DNA of 64,000 nt from Candidatus Omnitrophota bacterium (GTDB lineage Bacteria; CAIJMQ01). The notes under the pieces were generated by a model. It was not told the origin of the DNA. It made no database searches and saw only the letters and a program-made list of their open reading frames with translations. Shown here piece after piece: positions 2,441 to 56,073 of the stretch. The stretch covers positions 101,621 through 165,620 of the forward strand of contig JAHJCU010000004.1 of assembly GCA_018812925.1 (NCBI GenBank), in the 5' to 3' direction. The translations under genes were made by a program, and so were the position numbers. Positions within the stretch are counted from its first letter, which is position 1; each line of letters begins with the position of its first letter.

Positions 2441-4372
2441 TCACAAATACGGATCTACATTTTGCGAATCGATTATCATTACTGGAGATTTTGTTCTTGG
2501 AGAAATCACTTCTTCCTTGATGGTGTTTCTCAAGACTGTTCGCATCAGAACTTTCCCCATACCAACGGGGTTGGTGTTTAAAGTAGCGAATAACTCTCTC
2601 TTTTTAATACTCTGAATAGCGTTTTTATTCCCGTCAAAACCCATTGTGAATATTTTATTTATTTTACCCGCTTCTTTGACTGCCTCTACTGCCCCCAAAG
2701 CCATTTCATCGCTCAAACAGAAAAATGCGTCTAAATGAGGGTATTTTTTAATTAACTCTTTAGCAACTAATTTGGCTTTATCTCTGTTCCAATCCGCAGG
2801 TCTGGACTCCACTATTTTAATTGCAGGATATTTTTTCACTACTTCGATAAATCCTTTTTTCCTGTCAATGGAATCGCTTCCTTCGGAAATACCTTCAATA
2901 ATGGCTACATTTCCTTCTGTTCTTAACAACCTTACCATAAAATGCCCCACCATTCTGCCCGCTTCTTTTTGTTCATAATAAATATAAGAAGCTATTTTGC
3001 CCGGAGGGTTCATCTTCAATGTGTTGAGATTGAAAACAAAAATCGGAATTTTTGCTTTGTTTGCTTTTACGATTATGTCTCCCACATTCTGTTTCGAGCA
3101 CAAACCGATTGCATCCACTTTATCTTCAATTGCTTTTCGCAAAGAACCTAATTGTTTTTCATAACGCCCTCCATAATTCGGGTCATCACTACCTGATAGA
3201 ACAATAACATCTACACTTCCAACTTCTTCTGCGACTTCCTTTACTCCCCGCAAAACATTGGAATAAAACGGACTAAGTGACGAGGAGCAAAATACAAACC
3301 TATTCTTGTCTTTTCTGGTAATTAAAGAAGGACATACTCTATTCCTGCCTTCTTCTTTCGCAAGATATAATGCCTCGTCTGCTTTCTTTACAAGGTCTCC
3401 GTAGAATATTGCATTTTCAGGATAAGATGACAGCCCAATACTGATAGTTAATTGGACTTTTTCTGTGCCTCCGTTTGCGTTAAATACATAATTTTCCACG
3501 CTTTTCCTTATTCTTTCCGCCGCGCATAATGCCTGATGTCTATTAGTATAAGGACAAATTACCGCTATTTCTTCTCCGCCATATCTGAAAGGTATATCAT
3601 ATGCTCTTATGGTATCCCTTATTATTTCCGAAATTACATACAAAACTTTATCTCCAACAAGATGCCCGTATTTGTCATTGAATATTTTAAAATGGTCTAT
3701 ATCAATCATTAATACTGACAGAGGATATTTAAAACGATTTGCTTTTGACACCTCTTTTATTAATGTTTCATAGAAAGACCTATGATTATACAGTGTAGTT
3801 AAACTATCAATATTTGCAGTATTGAGTAATATTGCCACTCTTTCTTTCAAATATTCGTTCTGAATCGTCATCATTTCGGTATAAAATAACTTGTTCAGTT
3901 TGTCTAAACCCAAATTAGAATATTCTTGGTTATATAACAAGATAATACCGATATTTTGTTCCCCTGCTTTCATGGGAATAACAACTGACGAAACCAATTT
4001 GTTATCTTTAACGAATGACAAATTTTTTATTTCCTTGTTTTTATCAATATCAATGGCGCAGATTTTATTTTTCTTTAACAATATTTCCATAACCTGCTTT
4101 TCTTTATTTACCTGCCCTTTTTTATGTTTACCAGCGCCTGTTATAAATTCTATCCTGTTGGTTGCTTCATCTCTTGCCCAGACGGAAAGCATATGTGCTT
4201 TTGAAGATTTTAAAATTTTTGCCAATGCAGATTCTATGGCTTTTTTCTTAAAAAAGTCCCTCAAAACAAGGTTGGTTAATGTAACATTACTTACCTCTAC
4301 AGGTTTCGTCGCACGCTGCAGACTCTTTGTCTTGCTACTTTTGAAAGCAGATTTTGGTTTCTTGGTTTTCAT
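2441..4372 (-). CDS. Diguanylate cyclase: GAF-like N-terminus, GGDEF domain, C-terminal periplasmic-binding-protein-like domain
   Basis: RAYD I-site followed by the GGEEI active-site motif; last ~270 aa resemble a type I sugar-binding PBP fold; ATG at 4372 preferred over the track TTG at 4384. Confidence 0.75.
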   Translation of the reverse strand: MKTKKPKSAFKSSKTKSLQRATKPVEVSNVTLTNLVLRDFFKKKAIESALAKILKSSKAHMLSVWARDEATNRIEFITGAGKHKKGQVNKEKQVMEILLKKNKICAIDIDKNKEIKNLSFVKDNKLVSSVVIPMKAGEQNIGIILLYNQEYSNLGLDKLNKLFYTEMMTIQNEYLKERVAILLNTANIDSLTTLYNHRSFYETLIKEVSKANRFKYPLSVLMIDIDHFKIFNDKYGHLVGDKVLYVISEIIRDTIRAYDIPFRYGGEEIAVICPYTNRHQALCAAERIRKSVENYVFNANGGTEKVQLTISIGLSSYPENAIFYGDLVKKADEALYLAKEEGRNRVCPSLITRKDKNRFVFCSSSLSPFYSNVLRGVKEVAEEVGSVDVIVLSGSDDPNYGGRYEKQLGSLRKAIEDKVDAIGLCSKQNVGDIIVKANKAKIPIFVFNLNTLKMNPPGKIASYIYYEQKEAGRMVGHFMVRLLRTEGNVAIIEGISEGSDSIDRKKGFIEVVKKYPAIKIVESRPADWNRDKAKLVAKELIKKYPHLDAFFCLSDEMALGAVEAVKEAGKINKIFTMGFDGNKNAIQSIKKRELFATLNTNPVGMGKVLMRTVLRNTIKEEVISPRTKSPVMIIDSQNVDPYL

Positions 4373-5464: not shown

Positions 5465-7179
5465 TGAACATCCTCCATTTTAAGTATAACCGAATTTCTG
5501 TTTTCCCATCCATCAATTTGCGCTGTATAAGCCAAATCTATGATGTCCTGCTTGTTCAAAACATTTAAATAATCCGCTTTACCAAAACCGATAACTTCTC
5601 TATGAAATTTTTCATCTTTTACCCAGAATTTTATATGATTGGAACCGACTTTTTTAGGTTCGGTCATTATTTGAAGATTCTTGGTTATAAAAACCGGTTC
5701 TTCGTTGCTTAAACCAAAAGGAGAAAAAAGTTGAAATTCTTTTACTACCGAATCAGTAAGAATATCCAAAGACATATAAGCATCCGCTACTAACAACGAA
5801 GTGAATTCCTCAATAGGTAACTCTTCGGCTAAGCTATTTATCTTGTTTCTAAATGGCTCTATATTATCCTGCGCAATCTCCAATCCGCAGGCGTGTTTAT
5901 GTCCGCCGAAAGTTACAAGCAATTCTTTTACTTTTCCCAAATTTTCGAATAAATTAAAATCACCTATACTGCGTCCGGAGCCCCTGCCAATACCGTTATT
6001 CAAAGAAATCAAAATCGCGGGTTTAGAGAATTTATCCACAAGACGCGACGCAACTATACCAATTACTCCCGGATGCCATCCTTCATTGGCAAGGACAAGA
6101 ATTCTATTTTCACGGAAATTGACATTTTCTTCCGCCATCTTCATAGCTTCCTGACAAATTTCTTCTTGTATTTTCTGTCTTTGTTTATTATCCGCTTCCA
6201 ATAAAGAAGCAATCTCCAAAGCTTCTTGTTCACACTGGCTCAAAAGCATCTTAACGCATTTATCGGCAGTATCAATCCTTCCACCTGCATTTAAACGCGG
6301 ACCCAAAATAAAACCGATATCGCGCGTCGTAATATTTTTGTTATTAATTTTGGCAGTGTTTTTTAAAGCATTTATGCCAACTTTTTTAGAAGAATCGAGT
6401 TTACTTAAACCATATTTAACTAATATCCTGTTTTCTCCTATAAGCGGAACCACATCACTTACAGTCCCAAGAGCAACTAAGTCAAGATGTTCTTCGAGGA
6501 AATCAAGTTCTTCCCGCCTGCTTGTCCCGATGTTACGTCGGGGCGAGCAGGTTTTCTCCTGCAACACTTGAGCGAACTTAAATACGACCCCAACGCCTGC
6601 GAGTTCTTTAAAAGGATAAGAACAAACTTTTGGGTTTATAACAGCTAATGCCGGAGGGATATGAACGCCTGCTTTATGATGGTCAACAATTATCGTATCT
6701 ATACCTTTTTGTTTGGCTAACAATATTTCTTCGGAACCGTCCATACCGCAATCACATGTGATTATTAATTTTACATTTTCCTTTTCTGCTTGTTTTATGG
6801 CTGTCATGTTTAGACCATAACCATCCTTAACTCTATGCGGCATATAATAAGAAGCATTTGCTCCAAGCTGTTTTAACGTAAGAAGCATAAGACATATTGA
6901 CGTTATTCCATCAACATCGTAATCCCCATAAACAAGAATTTTCTCGTCGTTTTCAATAGCCTGAAAAACTCTGGCAGAGGCTTCCCCAATCCCATTCAAA
7001 AGATACGGAGAATGAAGATCAGACAAGTTGCCGTTTAAAAATGCTTGCGCTTCCTTGGGCGTTTTACTGCCGCGATTTATCAACAGTTGCGCAGTACACG
7101 GAGAAATTCCTAAAACATTAGAAATTTGACCCGAAAGAAACGGTTCAAGTTTTTTTACTTTCCAGCGTTTCGGTTGCAT
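5461..7179 (-). CDS. recJ: Single-stranded-DNA-specific exonuclease RecJ
   Basis: DHH motifs (YGDYDVDGITS, DHH), DHHA1 region, 572 aa. Confidence 0.85.
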   Translation of the reverse strand: MQPKRWKVKKLEPFLSGQISNVLGISPCTAQLLINRGSKTPKEAQAFLNGNLSDLHSPYLLNGIGEASARVFQAIENDEKILVYGDYDVDGITSICLMLLTLKQLGANASYYMPHRVKDGYGLNMTAIKQAEKENVKLIITCDCGMDGSEEILLAKQKGIDTIIVDHHKAGVHIPPALAVINPKVCSYPFKELAGVGVVFKFAQVLQEKTCSPRRNIGTSRREELDFLEEHLDLVALGTVSDVVPLIGENRILVKYGLSKLDSSKKVGINALKNTAKINNKNITTRDIGFILGPRLNAGGRIDTADKCVKMLLSQCEQEALEIASLLEADNKQRQKIQEEICQEAMKMAEENVNFRENRILVLANEGWHPGVIGIVASRLVDKFSKPAILISLNNGIGRGSGRSIGDFNLFENLGKVKELLVTFGGHKHACGLEIAQDNIEPFRNKINSLAEELPIEEFTSLLVADAYMSLDILTDSVVKEFQLFSPFGLSNEEPVFITKNLQIMTEPKKVGSNHIKFWVKDEKFHREVIGFGKADYLNVLNKQDIIDLAYTAQIDGWENRNSVILKMEDVQ

Positions 7180-7285: not shown

Positions 7286-8153
7286 TATTTTGAATCTTAA
7301 TTTTTGTTATAAAATCTGCCAATAACCCGACTTCTTCCAAAGAAAGCGTTTCCCCCCGTCTTGTTAAATCAATTGGAGATTTCTTGTAAAATTCCAATGG
7401 AAGATTTAAGAATTTGAGAGTGTTCTTAAGATTTTTCCTTCTCATTCTAAACATTGCGTCTGCTATTTTGAAGAAAAGTTCCTCGTCACAAACTTTTACT
7501 CTTGGGCTTTTTAGAGGTTTAAATAAAACAATAGCCGAATCCACATTAGGTGACGGGAAAAACACCCTTCTTGAAACTTTATGAATTATTTCAATGCCCA
7601 TATGAAATTGTGCCTTTATACTTAAAAAAGAATAATTTTCACTGCCGGGACACGCAACGAGACGTTGTGCAAACTCTTTCTGAAGCATAAGCACGATGCA
7701 TGAGAATTTCTTCTTAAAAGAAATCAATTTAAATAGAATCGGAGAAGCTATGCTGTAAGGCGGGTTTGAAACTACTTTCCATTCAGGAGATTCTCTTAGA
7801 ATAATTTCCAGGTCAATTTTTAGGATATCATCATTGATAACTTTCACATTGGGATAGGAAACAGCGGCAAGCTCTTTTAAAGAAGAAGCAGCCCCCCTAT
7901 CCTTTTCTATAGCAAACACTTCAGCGCCTTCGCAAGCCAAAGCAAAAGTAAGCGTCCCTATTCCTGAACCTATCTCAAGAACTTTTTCTCCCTCTTTTAT
8001 TTTTGCGGTTTCAACTATCTTCTTAAGGATATTTTTATCAACCAAAAAATGTTGACCCAGAAATTTTCTGGGACTAAGCCCTCTTTCTATCAAAAGATTT
8101 TTGACTTGAGTAGGCGTAGCCAAATCCAAATCAGGTTTATGTAAATTAGCCAT
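7266..8153 (-). CDS. rsmA: 16S rRNA (adenine1518/1519-N6)-dimethyltransferase
   Basis: FLGQHFLVD and VLEIGSGIGTLT SAM-binding motifs, NPPY-like catalytic motif (SNPPYSI). Confidence 0.85.
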   Translation of the reverse strand: MANLHKPDLDLATPTQVKNLLIERGLSPRKFLGQHFLVDKNILKKIVETAKIKEGEKVLEIGSGIGTLTFALACEGAEVFAIEKDRGAASSLKELAAVSYPNVKVINDDILKIDLEIILRESPEWKVVSNPPYSIASPILFKLISFKKKFSCIVLMLQKEFAQRLVACPGSENYSFLSIKAQFHMGIEIIHKVSRRVFFPSPNVDSAIVLFKPLKSPRVKVCDEELFFKIADAMFRMRRKNLKNTLKFLNLPLEFYKKSPIDLTRRGETLSLEEVGLLADFITKIKIQNRHKGTK

Positions 8154-8997: not shown

Positions 8998-9044
8998 TTT
9001 AAAGTAGTTTTTTAAACTTAAAACTTATAACTTACCACTTAATA

Positions 9045-10277
9045 CTATTTTCCCAGTGACAATTTATATATTCTCACAATATCGTTTTCCTTAACTTCCA
9101 CTGGGTTGGATTCTATAGGTCCTTGCCCGGTTACCATCGCGCTTTTTACCATATTATTTATACTGCCCGGGTCAACTCCCAATTCTTGCAGCCCTTTATC
9201 CATACCTATTTTTTTTAGTAGTTCTTTTACGGCTTCTACCGATTTCATTGCCTCGTATTTATTTGTTCCAAATGCTCTCTTGCCCATTGCTCCTGATGCA
9301 AGACAATATTTCTGCAAGGTAGTATTGTCACCGTTTTCGATATTGAACTGCATGATGTGAGGGGTTAAGGCAGCAAGTGCGGCGCCGTGTGAAATATTAG
9401 GATAATAAGCGCTGATTGGATGAGACATTGCGTGAGGCAATACAACACGCGAGGTGGTTATCACAAATCCTGCATATGTATCAGCCAAAGCCATTGCGCC
9501 TCTACTTCTTATGTTATCACCGTTTCTATAAGTATCTGTTAAGTAATTGAATACCAGTTCGATACCTTTCAAAGCCATTTCTTCCGTAATGGGATTGCAA
9601 TTTTTTGAAACCAGCCCTTCAAGACAATGTGTTAATACATCAACGCCGCATTCGGCAGTTAAAGCAGGCGGCATATTCGTTAAAATTTCCAAATCCACAA
9701 CGGAAAGTTTTGGGAAAATATGCTGTGAATATATTCCCATCTTTTGTTTAAGCTCAAGATTAGTTATTACGGAAAATCGCGTTACATGAGAACCTGTTCC
9801 CGAACTTGAAGTTATTGCTACTATGGGAAGTGTTTTTGATGTTATAGGTAGCGGAGTACTTTGAGATGGTGAAAAAGCCCATATTGATTGGAATTCTCCC
9901 TGCCCTGAACCAGAACAAGTTCGGTTCAGGGTGGAGCTATGACCTGCGACTATGGCTATAGCTTTTGCGGCATCTATACTTGAACCGCCGCCAAGACCAA
10001 TAATCACATTGCATTTATTTTCCAAAGCAACTTTTGCGCCTTCATCTACTAATTCTGTTGTGGGATTAGGTGTAATTTTGTTGAAAACAGTTACTTTTAT
10101 TACGTGATTTTTCAGATGGTCAATTATTTTTTGAGTAAAACCCAACTGATCCATACTGTTTCTGCCTGTTACTAATAGAACATTATCTCCAAGTTTTTTT
10201 ACTTCTTCGGATATTTTAACCGATACGCCTTTCCCAAAAAGCAGATTTACTTTTGGCAGTTCAAAATTGAAATCCAT
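9045..10277 (-). CDS. Iron-containing alcohol dehydrogenase family protein
   Basis: GGGSSIDAAKAIA motif and His-rich metal site region; GGAGG Shine-Dalgarno upstream of the ATG. Confidence 0.8.
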   Translation of the reverse strand: MDFNFELPKVNLLFGKGVSVKISEEVKKLGDNVLLVTGRNSMDQLGFTQKIIDHLKNHVIKVTVFNKITPNPTTELVDEGAKVALENKCNVIIGLGGGSSIDAAKAIAIVAGHSSTLNRTCSGSGQGEFQSIWAFSPSQSTPLPITSKTLPIVAITSSSGTGSHVTRFSVITNLELKQKMGIYSQHIFPKLSVVDLEILTNMPPALTAECGVDVLTHCLEGLVSKNCNPITEEMALKGIELVFNYLTDTYRNGDNIRSRGAMALADTYAGFVITTSRVVLPHAMSHPISAYYPNISHGAALAALTPHIMQFNIENGDNTTLQKYCLASGAMGKRAFGTNKYEAMKSVEAVKELLKKIGMDKGLQELGVDPGSINNMVKSAMVTGQGPIESNPVEVKENDIVRIYKLSLGK

Positions 10278-10432
10278 AATATTTTCCTCCGTCTAAGATA
10301 GTCGATAGTGTTTAGTAAATAGTTTACAGTGTATAGCGCATGGTTTTGGGATACTTTCTACTATCAACTATACCCTATAGACTATAAACTGTTTTTTGTA
10401 TTTTCATCTATTTTTCTCTTTAGGTCAAATTT

Positions 10433-22020: not shown

Positions 22021-23907
22021 ATGTGCGGAATATGCGGATTTTTGAATAAAAAAATTCTTTCCTCTGAAGTTTTGGAGAAAATGAATGACGAGTTGGCTCA
22101 TCGGGGACCTGATGATAGAGGTATATATTTAAATACAATTCCTAATTACCAATTACCAATTACCAATGATACTTTTCAAGTGGGGTTGGGGAATAGGAGG
22201 CTTTCTATTATTGACCTTACGGAACACGGTCATCAGCCAATGTGCAATGAAAAGAGAGATGTCTGGATAGTTTTTAACGGGGAAATCTATAATTTTCAGG
22301 AATTAAAAAAAGAATTAGAGGGCAAAGGACATAAGTTCAAAGGAAGGTCTGATACCGAAGTTATTTTGCATTCTTATGAACAATGGGGTGTAGATTGTTT
22401 GCAAAGATTCAACGGCATGTTTGCTTTTGCTATTTGGGACCAGAAGAAAAAAACACTTTTTATAGCAAGAGACAGAGTTGGTATTAAGCCGCTGTATTAT
22501 TATTTTAAAGACGGGAATTTCGCTTTTTCTTCCGAATTAAAGTCCCTGCTGAAGTATCCCTTATTTGAAAAAGAATTAAACAAAAAGAGTTTATATTATT
22601 ATCTTCTTTTTCAGTATGTTCCAACCCCTTATTCTATATTCGAAAATACTTGGAAACTACTGCCCGGTCATTATTTAATATTAAGAGAAGGTAGGGGTGT
22701 TAAGATTAAGAAATATTGGGATATCTTGGGTAAAAGAGAAGTGATAAGAAAAAAAAATGTTCAAGAATATATGGAAGAATTTGAAAGTTTGCTTAAAAGC
22801 TCTATTAAATATCGACTTATAAGCGATGTCCCTGTAGGCGCATTTTTGTCCGGCGGCACAGATTCTAGCTTAGTAGTAGCTTCAATGGCTCAATTAACAG
22901 ATAAAGTAGAAACATTCACTATCGGTTTCGAAGAAAAAAAATACAATGAAGCTCCATATGCAAAAGAAATAGCTAATTATTTAGGTACAAAACATCACGA
23001 ACTTTATTTTAAAGAGAAAGATATATTCTCGCTTATTAGAGATTTGCCCCAATATTACGATGAACCTTTCGGCGATTCTTCTTCCCTGCCAACGTACTTG
23101 GTTTCCCGTCTTGCAAAAGAAAAAGGTGTTAAGGTGGTTCTTTCCGGAGACGGAGGGGACGAATTATTTTGCGGATATAATCGTTATATATGGATGAATA
23201 GAATGCAAAATATTCTACTATTACCTGCAATTATCAGAGAAAAAGTTGCGCCTTTATTAGGAAACATCCCCTATCTAAAACTGCGGCGAATATCTCAAAT
23301 TTTGCAATACAAAGACCTTCTCCAAATGTATTTGAGCGTAGTAGATATGTGGTCCGAAAAAGAACTTGAAAAACTTTTAGGAGAAAATTATTCCTATGAA
23401 GAATTGCCTTTTTCCAAAGTTTATAAAAAAGTTAATGCATCGCATTTACTTGAAAAATTACAACTTGTAGATTTTCATACATATTTGCCCGAAGATATAC
23501 TTACCAAAGTAGATAGAGCTTCTATGGCGGTATCACTTGAGACAAGAGTGCCATTATTAGACCACAGAATAGCAGAGTTTGCGTATAGCTTGCCTTTGGA
23601 TTTACGCTATAGACAAGGGATAAGAAAGTATCTATTGAAAAAAGTGCTTTACAAAGAACTTCCAGCCAAATTTTTTAGACGACCCAAACAAGGATTTGGG
23701 ATTCCGCTTGATCAATGGTTAAGAGGAGGTGTTAAGCCTTATATTGACGAATATTTGAATACTGGGAGAATAAAAAAAGAAGAGTTGTTTAACCCTGAAT
23801 TTGTGAAAGAACTTATTAAAAAACACTTAAGCGGTAAATATAATTATCAATATCCTATATGGACTTTGCTCCAATTCCAATTGTGGAAAGAAAAATACCT
23901 TACCTGA
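22021..23907 (+). CDS. asnB: Asparagine synthase (glutamine-hydrolysing) family amidotransferase
   Basis: N-terminal MCGI nucleophile; SGGTDSS PP-loop; 628 aa. Confidence 0.85.
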   Translation: MCGICGFLNKKILSSEVLEKMNDELAHRGPDDRGIYLNTIPNYQLPITNDTFQVGLGNRRLSIIDLTEHGHQPMCNEKRDVWIVFNGEIYNFQELKKELEGKGHKFKGRSDTEVILHSYEQWGVDCLQRFNGMFAFAIWDQKKKTLFIARDRVGIKPLYYYFKDGNFAFSSELKSLLKYPLFEKELNKKSLYYYLLFQYVPTPYSIFENTWKLLPGHYLILREGRGVKIKKYWDILGKREVIRKKNVQEYMEEFESLLKSSIKYRLISDVPVGAFLSGGTDSSLVVASMAQLTDKVETFTIGFEEKKYNEAPYAKEIANYLGTKHHELYFKEKDIFSLIRDLPQYYDEPFGDSSSLPTYLVSRLAKEKGVKVVLSGDGGDELFCGYNRYIWMNRMQNILLLPAIIREKVAPLLGNIPYLKLRRISQILQYKDLLQMYLSVVDMWSEKELEKLLGENYSYEELPFSKVYKKVNASHLLEKLQLVDFHTYLPEDILTKVDRASMAVSLETRVPLLDHRIAEFAYSLPLDLRYRQGIRKYLLKKVLYKELPAKFFRRPKQGFGIPLDQWLRGGVKPYIDEYLNTGRIKKEELFNPEFVKELIKKHLSGKYNYQYPIWTLLQFQLWKEKYLT

Positions 23908-42956: not shown

Positions 42957-43040
42957 GATGTTAATTTTTAGTTTTTAGTTTTTTTTCGCAGGATACTATA
43001 TAATTGAGATAATTGAGCTTAATAAAAACGGAGTCAGAAA

Positions 43041-48036: not shown

Positions 48037-48081
48037 AATTGTCACGACTGCCCGCTTCGCAAGCATGCGGGCGTGACAATT
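48037..48081. repeat. GC-rich palindromic element, copy A
   Basis: AATTGTCACG-ACTGCCCGCTTCGCAAGCATGCGGGCG-TGACAATT; the inner 26-nt core matches the reverse complement of 54087-54114 at 25 of 26 positions. Confidence 0.55.
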
Positions 48082-48178
48082 ATCCCGCAGAGTATCGGAA
48101 AAATATCAAACCCTCTGGAATTTGAAAAATTGCGAGGACCAAAGTCCCGAATTTCTCAGAAGAAATTTTTCCGATGTC

Positions 48179-48814
48179 TTACGTTGCGGGATTAATCAAC
48201 TTGTTAAAAATTTCTGCGCTTAAATTATTATAATTATCTATGACAATATCTGCACTTTTTAGAAAATCTCTTTTATGAGTAGAGCTTACTCCAATACACT
48301 TCATCCCTGCTTTCTTTGCTCCTTCAACTCCAACCGGAGCATCTTCTACAACAATGCATCCGGAGGGCGAAACGCCTAATTTTTTACTTGCAAGAAGAAA
48401 AATGTCGGGATGGGGTTTACTGTGCTGAACTTGATTGCCATATACAAGAGCCGAGAAAAATTCTTTTAATCCGCATTCTTCGGTTATGAGTCCTACGTTC
48501 TCCGGAGTACCGCTACTTGCCACAGCCATTTTAAACCCATCTGCTTTTAGCAAGTTCAATAAGTCAATCAAACCATCAAAGGGTTTTATATACCCCTTTG
48601 CAAATTTGCGAAAAAGAATTCCTTTTTCATCGCTTATCTTTATAATTTCTTCCTTAGTATAACTGCCTCTAATAACCATGGGGATAATTTTGTCATCTCT
48701 CATACCAAAGAAATGAGTAAACTCTTCCCAGGAAAGGTTCACACCTCTTGCTTTAAAGATTTGTTCCCACGCACGATAATGAAACTGGGATGTATCGGCT
48801 AAAACACCATCCAT
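48179..48814 (-). CDS. HAD family hydrolase (beta-phosphoglucomutase-like)
   Basis: N-terminal DGVLADT motif I and the remaining HAD motifs. Confidence 0.75.
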   Translation of the reverse strand: MDGVLADTSQFHYRAWEQIFKARGVNLSWEEFTHFFGMRDDKIIPMVIRGSYTKEEIIKISDEKGILFRKFAKGYIKPFDGLIDLLNLLKADGFKMAVASSGTPENVGLITEECGLKEFFSALVYGNQVQHSKPHPDIFLLASKKLGVSPSGCIVVEDAPVGVEGAKKAGMKCIGVSSTHKRDFLKSADIVIDNYNNLSAEIFNKLINPAT

Positions 48815-51804: not shown

Positions 51805-53090
51805 GTTTTATTCTTCCAACGGTTCATAAGCAGAAGATTTGTTAACAGGAAACCGATTCCGATGATTATAAAAGCTATCCCTCTGGTTATGAAGCTCATA
51901 TCGCTGTCAAAAAATCTTGCAACAACCAGCAGTATTAAAATGACGATGCCTAGATTTATAGTGCCAATATGTTCTTTTTTAACACCTTCAGCTATTGTAT
52001 TTATGCCTAAGGCTGATAGATACAAATTGAATAGGATAACAGGGAAAATAGTATTCGGATTAAATGAATATAAAGCGTGTCCTGCAAGTGTTACTAAAGG
52101 AAGAAAAGCGAACGATATTACTGCTGTCTTGTCCCGCCTGATAAATTCTACGAAAAGAACCAAAGCAATTAGAAAGAGAATTACTGCAAAAATATATTCG
52201 CCTTTAGCTTCGGCAAACTGAGGAAACTTCCAGTAAATTGTTTTCCATATATATCTATAGGTAAGAATATATGAAAGCGTGAAAGCGCCCAATAACCCCA
52301 CAATCTTGAATGGTTCTAACAGGTTTGTTTTAAATTTACCTACCCAAAGGACTCCTATGAGATACAAAATGGCAAAGAAGCTACCATATATTATCATCCA
52401 GTAAGTCGGCAATATATCTAATAGAGTAATGCCTATGGCTACGCAAAGACAGATAGAAATAATCAAACTAAAGAAATTGAAACGGATAAAATATGAATCT
52501 TTTTTTGCAATCTGCAAAAAATGGGGAATTATTAAAGCGGCGAGAGGCCAAAACAGTATGGCGTTTCCATCACCAAATTTCGCGCTGCCAGACCAAAAAG
52601 TAATTCCTATAATATAGAGCATTGCTGGGACGGTAGCCCGCATAAAATATACTAAAGGAAGTCCCAATAACATCCAGAATAATAAAAAGTGGGAGTCATA
52701 GAATGAGATATGGTATGTCTGTTCAATAAGTGCAGCTGAAGCACCTATCATAAGAAATAGAAAAGTTGCAGTCCCTTCTTTCCACGAATCGGATTCATTT
52801 CGCTTTAGTATTGTCCATCCGACAAGCAACTGTGCCAAAATCAAAGGGAGAAGAGAAAGAATAGTTCTTGCGGAACGGGAAAGTTCCTGCCAGTTGTGGG
52901 CTAAAAGGAGAATTATTCCTGACCCGATTAGTAAAGAACCCAAGAGACTGAATATTATTAGAGCAACTCTTGGTCCTTTTCTATCGCTATAGTATTGACG
53001 TAGTTTGTCGGCAGTTTCCGAAGATAATATACCCTTATCTACTAAAATAGGTATTTCTTTATAAAGCCACTGTATAGCTTTTCTGCTCAC
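51801..53090 (-). CDS. Polytopic membrane protein (DUF2157/DUF4401-like)
   Basis: Short soluble N-terminus followed by about 12 TM helices. Confidence 0.45.
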   Translation of the reverse strand: MSRKAIQWLYKEIPILVDKGILSSETADKLRQYYSDRKGPRVALIIFSLLGSLLIGSGIILLLAHNWQELSRSARTILSLLPLILAQLLVGWTILKRNESDSWKEGTATFLFLMIGASAALIEQTYHISFYDSHFLLFWMLLGLPLVYFMRATVPAMLYIIGITFWSGSAKFGDGNAILFWPLAALIIPHFLQIAKKDSYFIRFNFFSLIISICLCVAIGITLLDILPTYWMIIYGSFFAILYLIGVLWVGKFKTNLLEPFKIVGLLGAFTLSYILTYRYIWKTIYWKFPQFAEAKGEYIFAVILFLIALVLFVEFIRRDKTAVISFAFLPLVTLAGHALYSFNPNTIFPVILFNLYLSALGINTIAEGVKKEHIGTINLGIVILILLVVARFFDSDMSFITRGIAFIIIGIGFLLTNLLLMNRWKNKT

Positions 53091-53106
53091 ATTTACACTC
53101 CGTTTG

Positions 53107-53964
53107 TTACTTTACTACTTTTTGATTTAAAAATCCATGTATCATCTCTCTATATTTCTCTCTCAATATTACAGAATATCGTCCAATTTTACCGCGATTG
53201 ATTAATGCGTTCTCTATCTTAATTATCGACATTACTTCTATGAGAGAGGATGTTAGAAAAATTTCGTCGCAGGATTTTAGGAAGTCCACATCCACAAGTT
53301 TTTCTTCCACTTTTAAACCTACAGTAGGAGCCATCTGTAAAATTTTTGCCCTTGTTATGCCGGGCAGTATTCCTGAATCGCTTGGCGCAGTGATAAGTGT
53401 ATCACCACTTATCATAAAGATATTTCTTGTTGTGCCTTCAAGGACAAAACCGTCGGTACTTAAGAGTATTGCTTCATCCACGCCTTTCTCTTTTGCTTCT
53501 TTTTTTGCAAGTATATGAGGCAGGAATGAGAGTGTTTTGTGTGAGTTTATAGAAAGGGATGAATCAATTCTTATTGAAGATATTATTGCGGTATATCCTT
53601 TTTCATAGTCGCTTTCTTTGTAGCGGACTTCGTCTTTTACAATGACTATAAAATTAGCGTTTTTCTCTTCTTCATCTGTTTTGGTGAGATAGATATTAAC
53701 AAGCCCCTTGTTTATTGATGAATCGCTGATTAATTTTTTTATGATTTCGGCAACTTGTTCTAGATTAACAGATAATTTTAAATCAAGCGCCTTGGCGGAA
53801 TCCCTTAATCTCTCAAAATGCTCTTTCAGGAAAATAACTTTGCCTTCTTCTATGCATATTGTTTCAAATATGCCTTCGCCGTATCTGAAACCCCTATCTA
53901 AGATAGAGATTTTAGCATCCTGTAAAGACATGAAATCGCCATTGATATAAGCTAATCCTTTCAT
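53107..53964 (-). CDS. pabC: Class IV aminotransferase, probably aminodeoxychorismate lyase
   Basis: Fold-type IV PLP enzyme motifs; located in a pabB locus. Confidence 0.6.
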   Translation of the reverse strand: MKGLAYINGDFMSLQDAKISILDRGFRYGEGIFETICIEEGKVIFLKEHFERLRDSAKALDLKLSVNLEQVAEIIKKLISDSSINKGLVNIYLTKTDEEEKNANFIVIVKDEVRYKESDYEKGYTAIISSIRIDSSLSINSHKTLSFLPHILAKKEAKEKGVDEAILLSTDGFVLEGTTRNIFMISGDTLITAPSDSGILPGITRAKILQMAPTVGLKVEEKLVDVDFLKSCDEIFLTSSLIEVMSIIKIENALINRGKIGRYSVILREKYREMIHGFLNQKVVK

Positions 53965-53999
53965 AATTATCTTATCTAAGGGTTACGGCCCGTTTTTTC

Positions 54000-54051
54000 G
54001 TAATCAGTAATCTCAATATGTAATTCGTAACTAGTAAATGGTAAATAGTAA
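54000..54051. repeat. Tandem heptad array with GTAA at 7-nt periodicity (seven GTAA copies, one 13-nt gap)
   Basis: cGTAAtcaGTAAtctcaatatGTAAttcGTAActaGTAAatgGTAAataGTAA, in the region upstream of pabC. Confidence 0.55.
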
Positions 54052-54138
54052 TTAATCTAAACTAATTTTTAAAAAATTACGGATTACGCCCGCCTGCTTG
54101 CGAAGCGGGCAGGCTTTACGAGTTACTAATTACGAATT
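54022..54138. repeat. About 23-bp imperfect inverted repeats (20 of 23) flanking GC-rich core copy B; MITE-like or composite structured element
   Basis: AATTCGTAACTAGTAAATGGTAA (54022-54044) against the reverse complement of 54116-54138 (AATTCGTAATTAGTAACTCGTAA). Confidence 0.35.
54071..54114 (-). terminator. GC-rich hairpin (core copy B) with a downstream U-tract; candidate terminator of the RNA-binding-protein gene
   Basis: Minus strand GCCCGC-N11-GCGGGC stem then CGUAAUCCGUAAUUUUUU; the 10-nt gap before the U-run is atypical. Confidence 0.35.
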
Positions 54139-54141
54139 TTA

Positions 54142-54522
54142 TTAATATCCTCTATCTCTTGTTCCTCTGGTTCTTCTATTGTCTCTTTTTTGTCCGCCTC
54201 GTTTGGAATTATAGCCGCCATGTCCACCCGAACCGAAACCGCCTCCTGGTGAGCTGAAACCGCCGCGTGAGGGACCAAAACTTCTTGGTTTGGGAGGACG
54301 AGCTTCATCAATTCTCAATTTGCGTCCTTCAAATTCGCTTTCACTTAATTCTGTTTTTGCTTTTCCGGCTGCTTCCGGAGTAGCCATTTCAATAAATGCA
54401 AAACCTTTGCCTTGGATTAGGTCAACTTTTACAACTTCGCCATACTTAGTGAATAATTCTTTTAACTGTTCACTGGTTACCGCATAATTGAGATTTCCTA
54501 CATACAGCTTGCTACCTTGCAT
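54142..54522 (-). CDS. RRM-type RNA-binding protein with a glycine-rich RGG tail
   Basis: RNP2 LYVGNL and RNP1 KGFAFIEM motifs; C-terminal RGGFSSPGGGFGSGGHGG. Confidence 0.85.
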   Translation of the reverse strand: MQGSKLYVGNLNYAVTSEQLKELFTKYGEVVKVDLIQGKGFAFIEMATPEAAGKAKTELSESEFEGRKLRIDEARPPKPRSFGPSRGGFSSPGGGFGSGGHGGYNSKRGGQKRDNRRTRGTRDRGY

Positions 54523-54660
54523 TCTATTCTCCTTTTTCCGCCGAAGGCGGCTTTTAATGTGCCACAGGTGTTAGTCCGTGGAACTATGTTATTTGTTTTT
54601 CTACATCTGAAAACATTTCTACTAGCTACCTATTAAGTACTCTTCTCACCTCCTTTGAAT
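54523..54660 (-). promoter_or_regulatory. 138-nt structured 5' leader of the RNA-binding-protein gene
   Basis: Minus-strand hairpins CCACGG...CUGUGG and GCCGCC-UUC-GGCGG, the latter 12 nt before the AAGGAG SD. Confidence 0.4.
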
Positions 54661-56073
54661 TTATAACAGCCATTTTAAATCATTATGGTTTAAAACTTTT
54701 TCTTTAGTTCCTGACAACAGTGATTCTGCCAATGCTTTGCCTTTATGCAGTGTTTCTTCATATTCAAGCTCAGGGTTGGAATCAGCTACGATTCCGCCTC
54801 CGACCTGAAAATATGCTGTTTTATTCTTAATGATAATCGTTCGGATTGAGATATTCAAATCCATCCTCCTGTTAAATGATATATAACCGATTGCGCCCGT
54901 ATAAATATTTCTTTTTGTGGGTTCGAGTTCCTCTATTATTTCCATAGAGCGCACTTTAGGAGCCCCTGTTATTGAGCCACCGGGAAATGAGTGTTTCACA
55001 CAATCAACCGGTGTTATACCGTCAACGACTTTCCCTTCTACAGTGCTTACTGTATGAAATACGGTGGGATTTGTTTCAAGCGCTACTAATTCTTTTACGC
55101 CAACACTGCCGTAATAACAGAATTTTCCCAAATCGTTTCTTTCAAGGTCTATAATCATTATAAGTTCAGCGCGGTCTTTTGGGGAATTTAATAATTCTTT
55201 TGCCAATCTTTTATCTTCTTCTTTGTTTTTGCCTCTTGGACGCGTGCCTTTTATGGGACGGGTATGTATTTTGTTTGCTTTAAGATACAGAAATCTTTCG
55301 GGCGAGGCGCTTATTACCGAAACTTCGGGAAAGTTTAAGAAAGCGGAAAAAGGCGCAGGGTTTATGAATGCAAGTTTTTCAAATAATTCAAAAGGCGATG
55401 AATTATATTGACACGAAAAACGCTGTGATAGGTTTACCTGAAAAATATCGCCTTTTTTTATGTAATCTTTCGCCTTCAATATAGCGTTTAAGTATGCATC
55501 TTTCTTGAAATTCGATTTAAGTTCAGACGAGTTGTTATATAAAGATTCATTGCTTTTTTTTAATCGCGTAGGGTTTTTTAGAAGTTCTTTGATTCTATTT
55601 TTTTTATCTTGAGGAGTATTTATCCAAAGTATAAAACTCTCTTTTGTTTTGTGGTCCCAATATAGGACCCAGTCGTAAAAAGGCAGGATACAATCGGGTA
55701 GATTTAAGTCATCTGTTGTTTGTTGATGTATTTTTTCAAGAGTAAAGCCCATATCGTATCCAAAGTAGCCGAGCATTCCGCCCGTAAAAGGAAGTGAAGA
55801 AGGAAGATTTTGTTTACCTGATTGTTCGGTATATATTTCGCGCAGTATGTTAAAGGGATTGCCTGTTTTATGTGTTTCCTGTCCGTTTGTAATTAAAGAT
55901 GTTTTTCTCCCTTTTGCCTTGAATATCATATAGGGAAAAGCGGCCATAAAAGAATATCTACCCCACGAGGAATTTTTTATTCCACTCAAGAGAAGCGACG
56001 AATACGGGTAATCCTTGAAGTTTCTAAATACATCAAGTGGGGAATAAGAATAGGGGAAAGATTCGATAATCAT
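54661..56073 (-). CDS. pabB: Aminodeoxychorismate synthase component I (chorismate-binding enzyme; anthranilate synthase not excluded)
   Basis: Chorismate-binding C-terminal motifs (SPERFL, GGGIVADSNPE). Confidence 0.7.
   Translation of the reverse strand: MIIESFPYSYSPLDVFRNFKDYPYSSLLLSGIKNSSWGRYSFMAAFPYMIFKAKGRKTSLITNGQETHKTGNPFNILREIYTEQSGKQNLPSSLPFTGGMLGYFGYDMGFTLEKIHQQTTDDLNLPDCILPFYDWVLYWDHKTKESFILWINTPQDKKNRIKELLKNPTRLKKSNESLYNNSSELKSNFKKDAYLNAILKAKDYIKKGDIFQVNLSQRFSCQYNSSPFELFEKLAFINPAPFSAFLNFPEVSVISASPERFLYLKANKIHTRPIKGTRPRGKNKEEDKRLAKELLNSPKDRAELIMIIDLERNDLGKFCYYGSVGVKELVALETNPTVFHTVSTVEGKVVDGITPVDCVKHSFPGGSITGAPKVRSMEIIEELEPTKRNIYTGAIGYISFNRRMDLNISIRTIIIKNKTAYFQVGGGIVADSNPELEYEETLHKGKALAESLLSGTKEKVLNHNDLKWLL

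Follow-up and report, generated by a model that had tools for sequence, protein, structure and literature searches.

Why should a short intergenic spacer carry inverted arrays of a heptanucleotide repeat wrapped around a GC-rich hairpin? This arrangement occurs in a 64-kb stretch of contig JAHJCU010000004.1 from a Candidatus Omnitrophota bacterium (hereafter the window; G+C content 35.6%), in the spacer between the gene for a small RNA-binding protein with an RRM domain (the RRM gene) and a pabC-like gene. All genes around the spacer are on the minus strand, which is therefore the sense strand of the element. The reading that we prefer, and to which we give about equal weight for and against, is that the RRM-pabC spacer is a remodelled derivative, devoid of an open reading frame (ORF), of a cassette akin to the intervening sequences (IVSs) of rRNA genes, and that it forms an intercistronic stem-loop. 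Judged from sequence comparison, the most likely ancestor is an IVS-like selfish cassette that is common in Omnitrophota. The coordinates of the features are collected in the table further below.

On the plus strand, GTAA occurs at 54000 and 54007 and then at 54020, 54027, 54034, 54041 and 54048; the last five are in exact 7-nt register, and the step from 54007 to 54020 is 13 nt, a register shift of -1. The motif positions had been listed correctly by an earlier model-made reading of the letters alone (the sequence-only reading), save that the heptad register is broken once, at this step. The reverse complement TTAC occurs at 54077 and 54084 and again at 54116, 54123 and 54130, with an extra copy at 53984. 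That reading had put the TTAC series on the other side of the GC hairpin; the 7-nt spacing was as described, but the copies lie on both flanks of the hairpin. Runs of three GTAA units separated by 3 nt (GTAA-N3-GTAA-N3-GTAA) were found 5 times in the window against 0.01 expected, 4 of the 5 at the RRM-pabC spacer, which also holds 5 of the window's 7 plus-strand GTAA pairs at a distance of 7. The 4-nt GTAA core is invariant in all 12 units while the 3 spacer positions vary, which is unlike what uniform decay of a slipped array would predict. Because 7 equals 1 modulo 3, three consecutive GTAA units place TAA in all three reading frames. One unit, at 54013-54007, reads TTACTGA on the sense strand.

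The arrays form inverted repeats. The imperfect repeat noticed earlier at 54022-54044 and 54116-54138 was borne out as a match of 54022-54045 with 54115-54138 (24 nt, 88% complementary), and an outer inverted repeat, 53997-54010 with 54123-54136 (14 nt, 93% complementary), encloses about 140 bp. The outer stem begins 6 nt past the RRM stop codon and ends 33 nt ahead of the pabC start codon. A motif and similarity search of the 64-kb window found no second copy of the GTAA arms.

We calculated folding energies for both strands of the spacer and re-computed z-scores for all 20 intergenic spacers of at least 60 nt in the window. The minus-strand (sense) transcript gave -49.2 kcal/mol and z = -5.06 (-5.8 on re-computation), and the plus strand folded equally well (z = -4.68). 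The RRM-pabC spacer was the most structured of the 20 (re-computed z = -5.3 and -5.8; -0.28 kcal/mol per nt), and the second-ranked was the HAD-hydrolase/arginine-decarboxylase spacer (z = -3.2 and -3.95), which holds a second copy of the GC hairpin core. The predicted minimum-energy fold is a three-way junction composed of an 18-bp outer stem (P1), the GC hairpin and a 12-bp inner stem (P3), with 9 of the 12 heptad motifs taking part in stems. Since the arms are periodic, several pairing registers are possible, including 54022-54045 with 54115-54138. The idea of a large RNA stem that includes the terminator of the upstream gene held up in its first part, as folding potential, and failed in its second. 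A canonical intrinsic terminator was rejected, the U6 run starting 12 nt past the GC core on the sense strand, and a terminator-type scan gave just a weak 5-bp alternative hairpin. An Rfam scan of 53000-55000 at permissive E-values returned chance-level matches (best E 1-5, scores far under gathering).

The case for a cassette comes from relatives. PF05635 (S23p, the "23S rRNA IVS protein" or IVP) is a four-helix bundle, and the S23p fold also serves as Avd in diversity-generating retroelements. In the relative L026, the RRM-pabC spacer contains a frameshifted PF05635 ORF within a 26-nt inverted repeat (81% complementary); other contigs have the order pabB-PF05635-pabC. Both L026 arms recur without an ORF as an 87-nt fold-back in the L026 dapB-pabB spacer (39 nt at 95% and 22 nt at 100% identity; z = -3.97), so that an ORF-less arm pair lies 2 kb from an ORF-bearing copy. 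A search with the L026 PF05635 protein gave 2278 matches at E <= 1e-10; the top 120 clusters were 76-98% identical, many of them on contigs shorter than 2 kb. Two of the proteins found were traced to their contigs, the marine L153 (gene order HisK-IVP-RR-IVP-HD) and L163 (IMPDH-IVP-dnaE), with the PF05635 ORFs in sense orientation in both. The flanks were nearly alike in L026, L153 and L163: the left arm reads ...GGTAACGAAGCCCGTATCGGTAA(A)CGGTWANGGTAACG-ATG and the right arm ...ACGTAACC...ACGAAACGGGCATCGTAACC...TAACCG. The arms are runs of 6-7-nt GGTAAC/CGGTWAn units and contain two mutually complementary boxes, GAAGCCCGTATCG in the left arm and CGAAACGGGCATCG in the right; the inverted repeat in L163 reaches 47 nt. 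The relative L012 has what is apparently a bare joint of the outermost arm ends. As a separate observation, PF05635 genes occupy two successive intercistronic gaps of the sensor kinase/response regulator/HD-domain operon in the Omnitrophota-like L153 (550-1950), with the conserved arms on the second gene and different arms on the first.

We compared these arms with the window. A right-arm profile (nhmmer) had its best window match at 54005-53978 on the minus strand, with a marginal E of 0.047; the match aligns with both L026 copies and spans the two distal heptads plus CGGGCCGTAACCC. The RRM-proximal arm, unmodified, had no significant similarity to the left arm. A scan of all deletions of 15-35 nt singled out TGCCCGCTTCGCAAGCAGGCGGG, which is 23 nt of the GC core: without it, similarity to the left arm recovers most, and the resulting score was reached by 1 of 200 shuffles put through the same procedure. 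The alignment after deletion is GTAAC..AAGCC/CGTAATCCGTAAT against GGTAACGAAGCC/CGTATCGGTAAT (the slash marks the joint), and the core in the spacer (copy B) lies within the left-arm box AAGCC/CGTA. In an alignment made by eye, the GC hairpins of L008 and L017 are apparently at the equivalent site, GCCCG/.../(G)TTATCGG. Given the deletion scan and this placement, we read the GC core, with moderate confidence, as an insertion or palindromic expansion in the left-arm box. From the same comparisons and with the same confidence we regard GTAA as a local variant of the CGGTAA unit.

The GC core is itself repeated. The sequence-only reading had labelled it copy B, and a second copy (copy A) is indeed present at 48046-48072 with 2 mismatches, a recurrence for which 0.00 are expected by chance. 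Copy A is lengthened by a 9-bp flanking inverted repeat, AATTGTCAC/GTGACAATT, and has no heptads. The identical 27 nt occur in the tRNA-Arg/tRNA-Phe spacer of an unrelated metagenome-assembled genome (MAG) of 36% GC (L008), flanked by CGGTGTT and AACCG repeats that pair, and L017 holds a variant. Relative to transcription, copy B and the L008 core point one way and copy A and the L017 variant the other, and copy B folds equally on both strands. Such independence of orientation fits a hairpin of the repetitive extragenic palindromic (REP) type, or a DNA-level repeat, and not a strand-specific RNA motif. A search of 185,579 representative genomes, a collection apparently without the source species, gave 5 exact matches, 4 of them in unrelated GC-rich sequence and 1 relevant. 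Among viral contigs the core had 0 matches, and the arm box ACGAAGCCCGTATCGG had 10, all in unrelated GC-rich coding sequence. On these sequence comparisons, the 27-nt quasi-palindrome behaves as a dispersed (REP-like) hairpin of apparently low copy number.

REPs are described as mRNA 3' stabilisers (PMC2817692). Considering the core only, the likeness to the REPs and bacterial interspersed mosaic elements of proteobacteria consists in a 27-nt imperfect GC-rich palindrome in an AT-rich genome, extragenic between co-directional genes, in both orientations and with the same sequence at unrelated loci. The differences are the few copies observed (2 in 64 kb; 1 exact in one GTDB MAG), the lack of a conserved foot tetranucleotide, and the core being part of a larger arm rather than free-standing. 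The flanks of the core copies differ (AAAGC/GTAAT, ATAAC/GAACA, CACGA/GTGAC), and no tetranucleotide at the hairpin foot is common to the four copies. No REP-associated (RAYT, Y1) transposase turned up, no genome-wide search aimed at Y1 having been made. TTAC is the target of IS608. An IS608-type use of TTAC as target, or a RAYT/REP mechanism, was nevertheless rejected on these two results.

Strain-level copies from three NCBI MAGs and several Logan assemblies were about 100% identical over the whole region, a single 1-nt indel, which lies outside the arrays, being the sole difference. Phase variation through changes in heptad number found no support here, in genomes too alike for the comparison to be informative. 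A metagenome scan with pabC gave just one close relative. The closest relative in the comparison, L152, has flanking genes 81-85% identical to the window at the nucleotide level, and its 266-nt spacer has other perfect hairpins and nothing in common with window 54128-53972. In L014, L015 and L016, the RRM-pabC spacer contains GGTTAA five times and then TTAACC four to five times with a 10-nt period, ending 8 nt ahead of the ATG (z = -3.1). The L017 spacer has CGGTT heptads (7 nt), a GC hairpin (GCCCGCCTGCC...GGGCAGG) and ACCGAA heptads (z = -3.6). In L012 and L013, pabB overlaps pabC and both the RRM gene and the spacer are absent. The sequence-only reading had held that syntenic conservation of the exact sequence would argue against mobility; looked for here, it was not there, the orthologous spacers sharing almost no sequence (mean column identity 36% when aligned). 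Their common trait is strong hairpin potential directly 3' of the RRM gene, usually with inverted short-period arms. That sequence, motif and period differ among relatives speaks against binding by a sequence-specific protein, the conserved RRM protein for example, and the persistence of hairpin potential in differing spacers points to structure, to quick replacement of what the spacer contains, or to the two together.

In its full form the cassette is a PF05635 ORF that reads in the sense direction, set between two co-directional host genes, with conserved inverted arms on either side. In the window copy the ORF would have been lost and the repeats turned into GTAA/TTAC heptads, with a 23-nt GC-rich segment inserted or expanded in the left-arm box to give the 27-nt quasi-palindrome. 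The heptad period would come from slipped-strand duplication, and the arrays would stay symmetric because both arms must remain complementary. We infer transcription through the element together with its host genes, an RNase III or stabiliser function, and a route of spread by which the cassette would have reached this spacer. Once transcribed, the element would zip into the three-way junction, which would loop it out of the transcript. The expected effects would be protection of the 3' end of the RRM message, damped read-through into pabC, and/or cleavage by RNase III as in rRNA IVS stems. Most likely the element is a stem-loop that the host tolerates or draws slight benefit from, lying between pabC and a highly expressed gene for an RNA-binding protein, and not a dedicated pabC regulator; it is probably a tolerated relic.

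The closest known parallel is the IVS of 23S rRNA genes. In Coxiella it has been described as selfish, with terminal inverted repeats that make a 28-bp stem and an S23p ORF in the loop; tandem heptameric repeats of strain-variable copy number lie upstream of the ORF, and RNase III cuts the element out (PMC4990558). The PF05635 accession also appears in a review (PMC10053308). Like the S23p-encoding rRNA IVSs of Coxiella, Leptospira, Xanthomonas and Brucella, the element is small and sense-oriented within a host transcript, its terminal inverted repeats form a long stem (18 bp in the outer stem, z about -5), the full copies in relatives have an S23p ORF in the loop with tandem heptamers beside it, and decay or loss of the ORF is tolerated. 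Unlike them, the element and the ORF-bearing Omnitrophota copies lie between protein-coding genes and not in 23S rRNA helix 25 or 45; the window copy has no ORF, its GGTAAC/GTAA repeat-built arms are on both sides, and a GC hairpin is embedded in one arm. RNase III cleavage is known for IVS stems, whereas the window stem is a predicted fold. In the literature consulted we found no description of S23p cassettes with conserved repeat-built arms in mRNA spacers. Overall, the element combines features of IVSs, REPs and heptamer repeats and departs from each in at least one defining respect.

Several points weigh against a derivation from such a cassette. A tblastn search found no PF05635-like coding sequence anywhere in the window, so the derivation rests on short arm similarities that are partly post hoc: the right-arm E is marginal and the left-arm match requires a 23-nt gap. 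No homologue could be detected for either the AT-rich centre or the array of five TTAC units, the unit in the window is GTAA and not GGTAAC, and the GTAA arms are single-copy in 64 kb. There is no clear target-site duplication, only A-runs beside the outer inverted repeat (TAATAAAA/TTCGTAA ... TTACGAA/AAAAACG), which are uninformative at 36% GC. The cassette encodes no recombinase to account for its spread. With strains about 100% identical, neither polymorphism nor constraint can be read from them. Finally, inverted short-period repeats of unrelated motif make up some of the lineage's other spacers, which would also allow an origin purely by local slippage.

That last point leads to the rival that survives best, although we consider it rather unlikely: a locally evolved structured spacer, with no cassette involved. 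Heptads would have arisen by slippage in situ, template switching would keep the arms complementary, and selection would favour whatever strong stem-loop stood downstream of the highly expressed RRM gene, whether it served to stabilise the 3' end, to insulate or to terminate. On this view, convergence, or no more than orthology of the pabC leader, would explain the arm similarities. Arrays of the required kind are frequent here. A sliding-identity scan of the window found 5 period-7 arrays where 0 are expected, with next to none at periods 4-6 and 9-13. A scan for 4-mer triple runs yielded 6 clusters at period 7, the other periods giving 0-1 apiece. At 10299-10385, in the spacer between divergent iron-containing alcohol dehydrogenase (Fe-ADH) and transaldolase genes, ATAGT occurs five times and then ACTAT five times as an inverted pair about 35 nt apart, forming a long hairpin (z = -3.05). 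At 9015-9041, AACTTAn occurs four to five times (TAAGTnn on the sense strand) without an inverted partner and takes up most of a 47-nt spacer between the Fe-ADH gene and the next gene. TTAGTTT occurs three times at 42961-42983. In L014, AGTAGAG occurs four times at each of two places (3988-4014 and 5641-5667), upstream of an FGGY kinase gene and of pfk and in opposite orientation relative to the gene; inverted TAGAAATA/TATTTC arrays lie between dapB and pabB (7745-7860); and four CGGTTAT units follow pabB (9237-9261), with a weak match to the cassette left-arm profile (E = 0.095). The repeat unit differs from one spacer of the lineage to the next.

The recurrence of period-7 arrays with unrelated units (10299-10385, 9015-9041 and L014) speaks for a local origin, as does the strong structure of every spacer seen 3' of an RRM gene, regardless of sequence. 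Heptanucleotide units are, moreover, reported to be the commonest long simple-sequence repeats in prokaryotes, for which slippage has been proposed (Mrazek 2007, as cited in PMC4679880). What a local origin does not predict is the recurrence of one set of arms around PF05635 ORFs of unrelated operons and samples, the presence of an ORF-less arm pair so near an ORF-bearing copy in L026, or an identical 27-nt GC core at non-homologous loci of different genomes. Complete spacer turnover at 81-85% nucleotide identity of the genes is also faster than slippage and point mutation suggest.

A second rival, which we think doubtful, takes the heptads as iterated binding sites: GUAA/UUAC heptads in mRNA bound by the RRM protein, an S1/Csp-like protein or an S23p pentamer, or else a DNA operator array like that of the omega repressor. 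In its RNA version, binding would control the fate of the RRM mRNA or the translation of pabC, whose leader has no Shine-Dalgarno sequence. The ribbon-helix-helix omega repressor of inc18 plasmids recognises contiguous 7-bp operator units with a conserved core, in direct and inverted orientation. The invariant GTAA core with its variable 3-nt spacers speaks for binding sites, and the TTAC array runs forward upstream of a start codon that has no Shine-Dalgarno sequence. TAACTGA arrays in Beggiatoaceae and Cyanobacteria are similarly placed and have been proposed as regulator sites (PMC4679880), and (TTACTGA)n arrays in IMG/VR adjoin a ribosome-binding site. The sequence-only reading had thought protein-binding sites an equal possibility; the orthologous spacers, with GGTTAA at 10 nt or CGGTT at 7 nt, disfavour them. 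Relatives keep the RRM protein and pabC yet have another motif, and even another period, at the orthologous site. With a separate unit in each spacer of the lineage, a single binder would not account for the arrays, and a period that goes from 7 to 10 nt argues against a need for helical phase or a fixed footprint. No gene for a small regulator of the ribbon-helix-helix type was noticed beside the arrays, and in a Pfam scan the genes adjoining them encode housekeeping enzymes. We gave up autoregulation by the adjoining RRM protein as the leading idea, the motif not being kept where the protein is kept. An operator of the omega or ribbon-helix-helix type was likewise set aside: unlike the omega arrays, those in the window have no cognate small repressor gene, the motif is unconserved at orthologous sites, and the period in relatives is 10 nt.

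Known heptamer arrays offer a further comparison. TAACTGA arrays lie upstream of start codons in Beggiatoaceae, Cyanobacteria and Bacteroidetes, and their function is given as unknown (PMC4679880). With these arrays, and with long simple-sequence repeats and cyanobacterial short tandemly repeated repetitive sequences, the window element shares a 7-nt period above chance, an intergenic position and a forward orientation before a start codon that has no Shine-Dalgarno sequence. Its TTACTGA unit is one base from TAACTGA, and both have stops in all three frames over three units. It differs in that its units agree at 4 of 7 positions (GTAA) and are not identical, in that its arrays are base-pairing inverted pairs (1 of 170 sets in BOGUAY is inverted), and in that the unit varies by spacer, with no one heptamer genome-wide; other arrays in the window use ATAGT, AACTTA, TTAGTTT and TTACCAA. 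In IMG/VR, more than 120 contigs carry five GTAA heptads or more, some as inverted (AGTAATC)n/(TTACTGA)n pairs beside a ribosome-binding site; such arrays are widespread, and no explanation came from them.

That the spacer is an active MITE (miniature inverted-repeat transposable element) is, in our estimate, quite improbable. The resemblance noted from the sequence proved partly justified: the arms probably share their origin with the inverted arms found on a dispersed cassette of which ORF-less copies exist, and the element is short (about 140 bp), AT-rich, non-coding and intergenic, folds back on terminal inverted repeats (14 nt at 93%, 24 nt at 88%), has A-runs at both ends and probably has a longer, ORF-bearing relative. 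The GC core is also where Logan contigs from five samples break. What did not stand is a transposition mechanism. The partner ORF encodes S23p and not a transposase, no convincing target-site duplication was seen, the arms have no second copy in 64 kb (just the 27-nt core recurs there), and the sampled strains show no insertion polymorphism. The weakest rival, a plus-strand small RNA or an RNA antisense to the pabC leader that would start near 53977 and end at the GC hairpin, where UUU comes next on the plus strand, is highly improbable: it can point to a sigma-70-like match at 53942-53970, to the equal folding of the plus strand and to a hairpin followed by UUUACGAGUU, but promoter-like matches are at chance level (6 against 6.0 expected), the U-tract is weak, there is no Rfam match (best E about 1, far under gathering scores) and the sequence is not conserved in relatives.

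The cassette reading can be extended, in a form that we hold only tentatively. Omnitrophota may harbour a large family of "messenger-RNA intervening sequences", made up of S23p cassettes and ORF-less derivatives that would spread among intercistronic spacers, with the arms as cis-acting sites and an RNase III-cut stem releasing the element. The S23p protein, a pentamer, may itself bind the repeated arm units. If this picture is true, the S23p elements of rRNA IVSs would represent a single niche within a wider class of selfish elements at the RNA level. The same kind of cassette, with inverted-repeat stem, heptameric repeats and S23p ORF, is seen between protein-coding genes. The ORF-bearing, ORF-less, minimal and hairpin-expanded forms at comparable sites of related genomes would provide a comparative series for insertion, decay and effects on operons, and the family could make the IVS/S23p problem tractable. 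For annotation, it would account for unusually structured spacers, their quick turnover and the assembly breaks there.

Table. Positions and properties of the RRM-pabC spacer, its repeat and stem segments, the GC core copies and the adjoining genes in the window.
Feature	Position	Strand	Description	Basis
RRM-pabC spacer	53965-54141		177 nt	
RRM-proximal arm	54115-54138	minus	three sense-strand GTAA heptads (plus-strand TTAC at 54116, 54123, 54130); contains the 5' strand of outer stem P1 (54136-54119 paired with 54015-53997, 18 bp)	minimum-energy helix coordinates, inverted repeats
GC core copy B	54088-54114	either	quasi-palindromic 11-bp hairpin with one mismatch and one G-U pair; -16.9 kcal/mol	
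Inner heptad pair	54075-54087	minus	two sense-strand GTAA (plus-strand TTAC at 54077, 54084); 5' strand of inner stem P3 (54087-54075 paired with 54032-54020, 12 bp)	
AT-rich centre	54052-54074	minus	U6 then A5; mostly unpaired in the predicted fold	
Five-unit TTAC array	54020-54051	minus	plus-strand GTAA 54020-54048 in exact 7-nt register; 54032-54020 is the 3' strand of P3; segment also an alternative partner for 54115-54138	
Distal heptads	53997-54015	minus	two sense-strand TTAC (plus-strand GTAA at 54000, 54007); 3' strand of the 18-bp P1; also belong to the putative right-arm homologue	
pabC-proximal segment TTACTGATTACGAAAAAACGGGCCGTAACCCTTAGATAAGATAATT	53965-54005	minus	probably homologous to the right arm of the PF05635 cassette (box CGAAACGGGCATCGTAACC); continues into the pabC leader	
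GC core copy A	48037-48081 (27-nt core 48046-48072)	opposite to copy B	2 mismatches; in the HAD-hydrolase/arginine-decarboxylase spacer	
pabB-like gene	54661-56073	minus	upstream of the RRM gene	
RRM gene	54142-54522	minus	126-aa single-RRM RNA-binding protein	Pfam RRM_1, E = 2.6e-19
pabC-like gene	53107-53964	minus	class IV aminotransferase; downstream of the pabB-like gene	

Some further observations concern the GC core and other hairpins. The Logan contigs from five samples (L001-L003, L005 and L030) stop at the edges of the core, at 54112 on one side and 54089 on the other, and these breaks may reflect other genomic copies or an assembly or coverage artefact at the hairpin. Another Logan contig stops at 48120, inside a hairpin module beside copy A, where a long imperfect hairpin spans 48071-48195 (ATCCCGCA...ATCGGAAAAAT // ATTTTTCCGAT...TGCGGGAT). 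A relative's pfk-dapB spacer (L015 6655-6725) matches the 5' part of this hairpin over 37 nt at 92% identity, which makes the hairpin another dispersed module. In the same pfk-dapB spacer, a 13-nt direct repeat, AATCGGAACGCAG (L015 6614-6626 and 6772-6786), surrounds about 150 nt of stacked hairpin modules and could be the footprint of a duplication or insertion.

Heptads were also seen in a coding sequence and in viral contigs. Three perfect TTACCAA units lie in frame within an asparagine synthase gene of the window (22146-22166), where they encode NYQLPIT; this looks like a 21-nt in-frame expansion of the heptad repeat type. Near-identical viral-classed IMG/VR contigs (L077 540-730, L069 4575-4765 and L101 190-375) have inverted arrays that adjoin the ribosome-binding site of a gene and consist of (AGTAATC)5-7, consecutive nnACTGr heptads and (TTACTGA/T)5.

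The last observations concern the RRM gene. Compared with L012 (9990-10010), which lacks the RRM gene and in which pabB and pabC overlap (ATGA), the window has an insertion between pabB and pabC (54142-54660) that comprises the RRM gene, its leader and the hairpin downstream of it. An 81-nt block at 54592-54672, comprising the end of pabB and the RRM leader and including AAGGAGGTGA, is 100% identical to L152 470-550, although the flanking genes of the two are just 81-85% identical. The block is recognisable in L014 and L026, where it has a possible peptide of about 18 aa ending in SD(V/I)EK. Directly 5' of the RRM-gene Shine-Dalgarno sequence there is a GC hairpin (GCCGCCTTCGGCGG and longer variants; window 54530-54556, L014 9440-9475, L152 625-665), a possible regulatory or stabilising stem of the 5' untranslated region.

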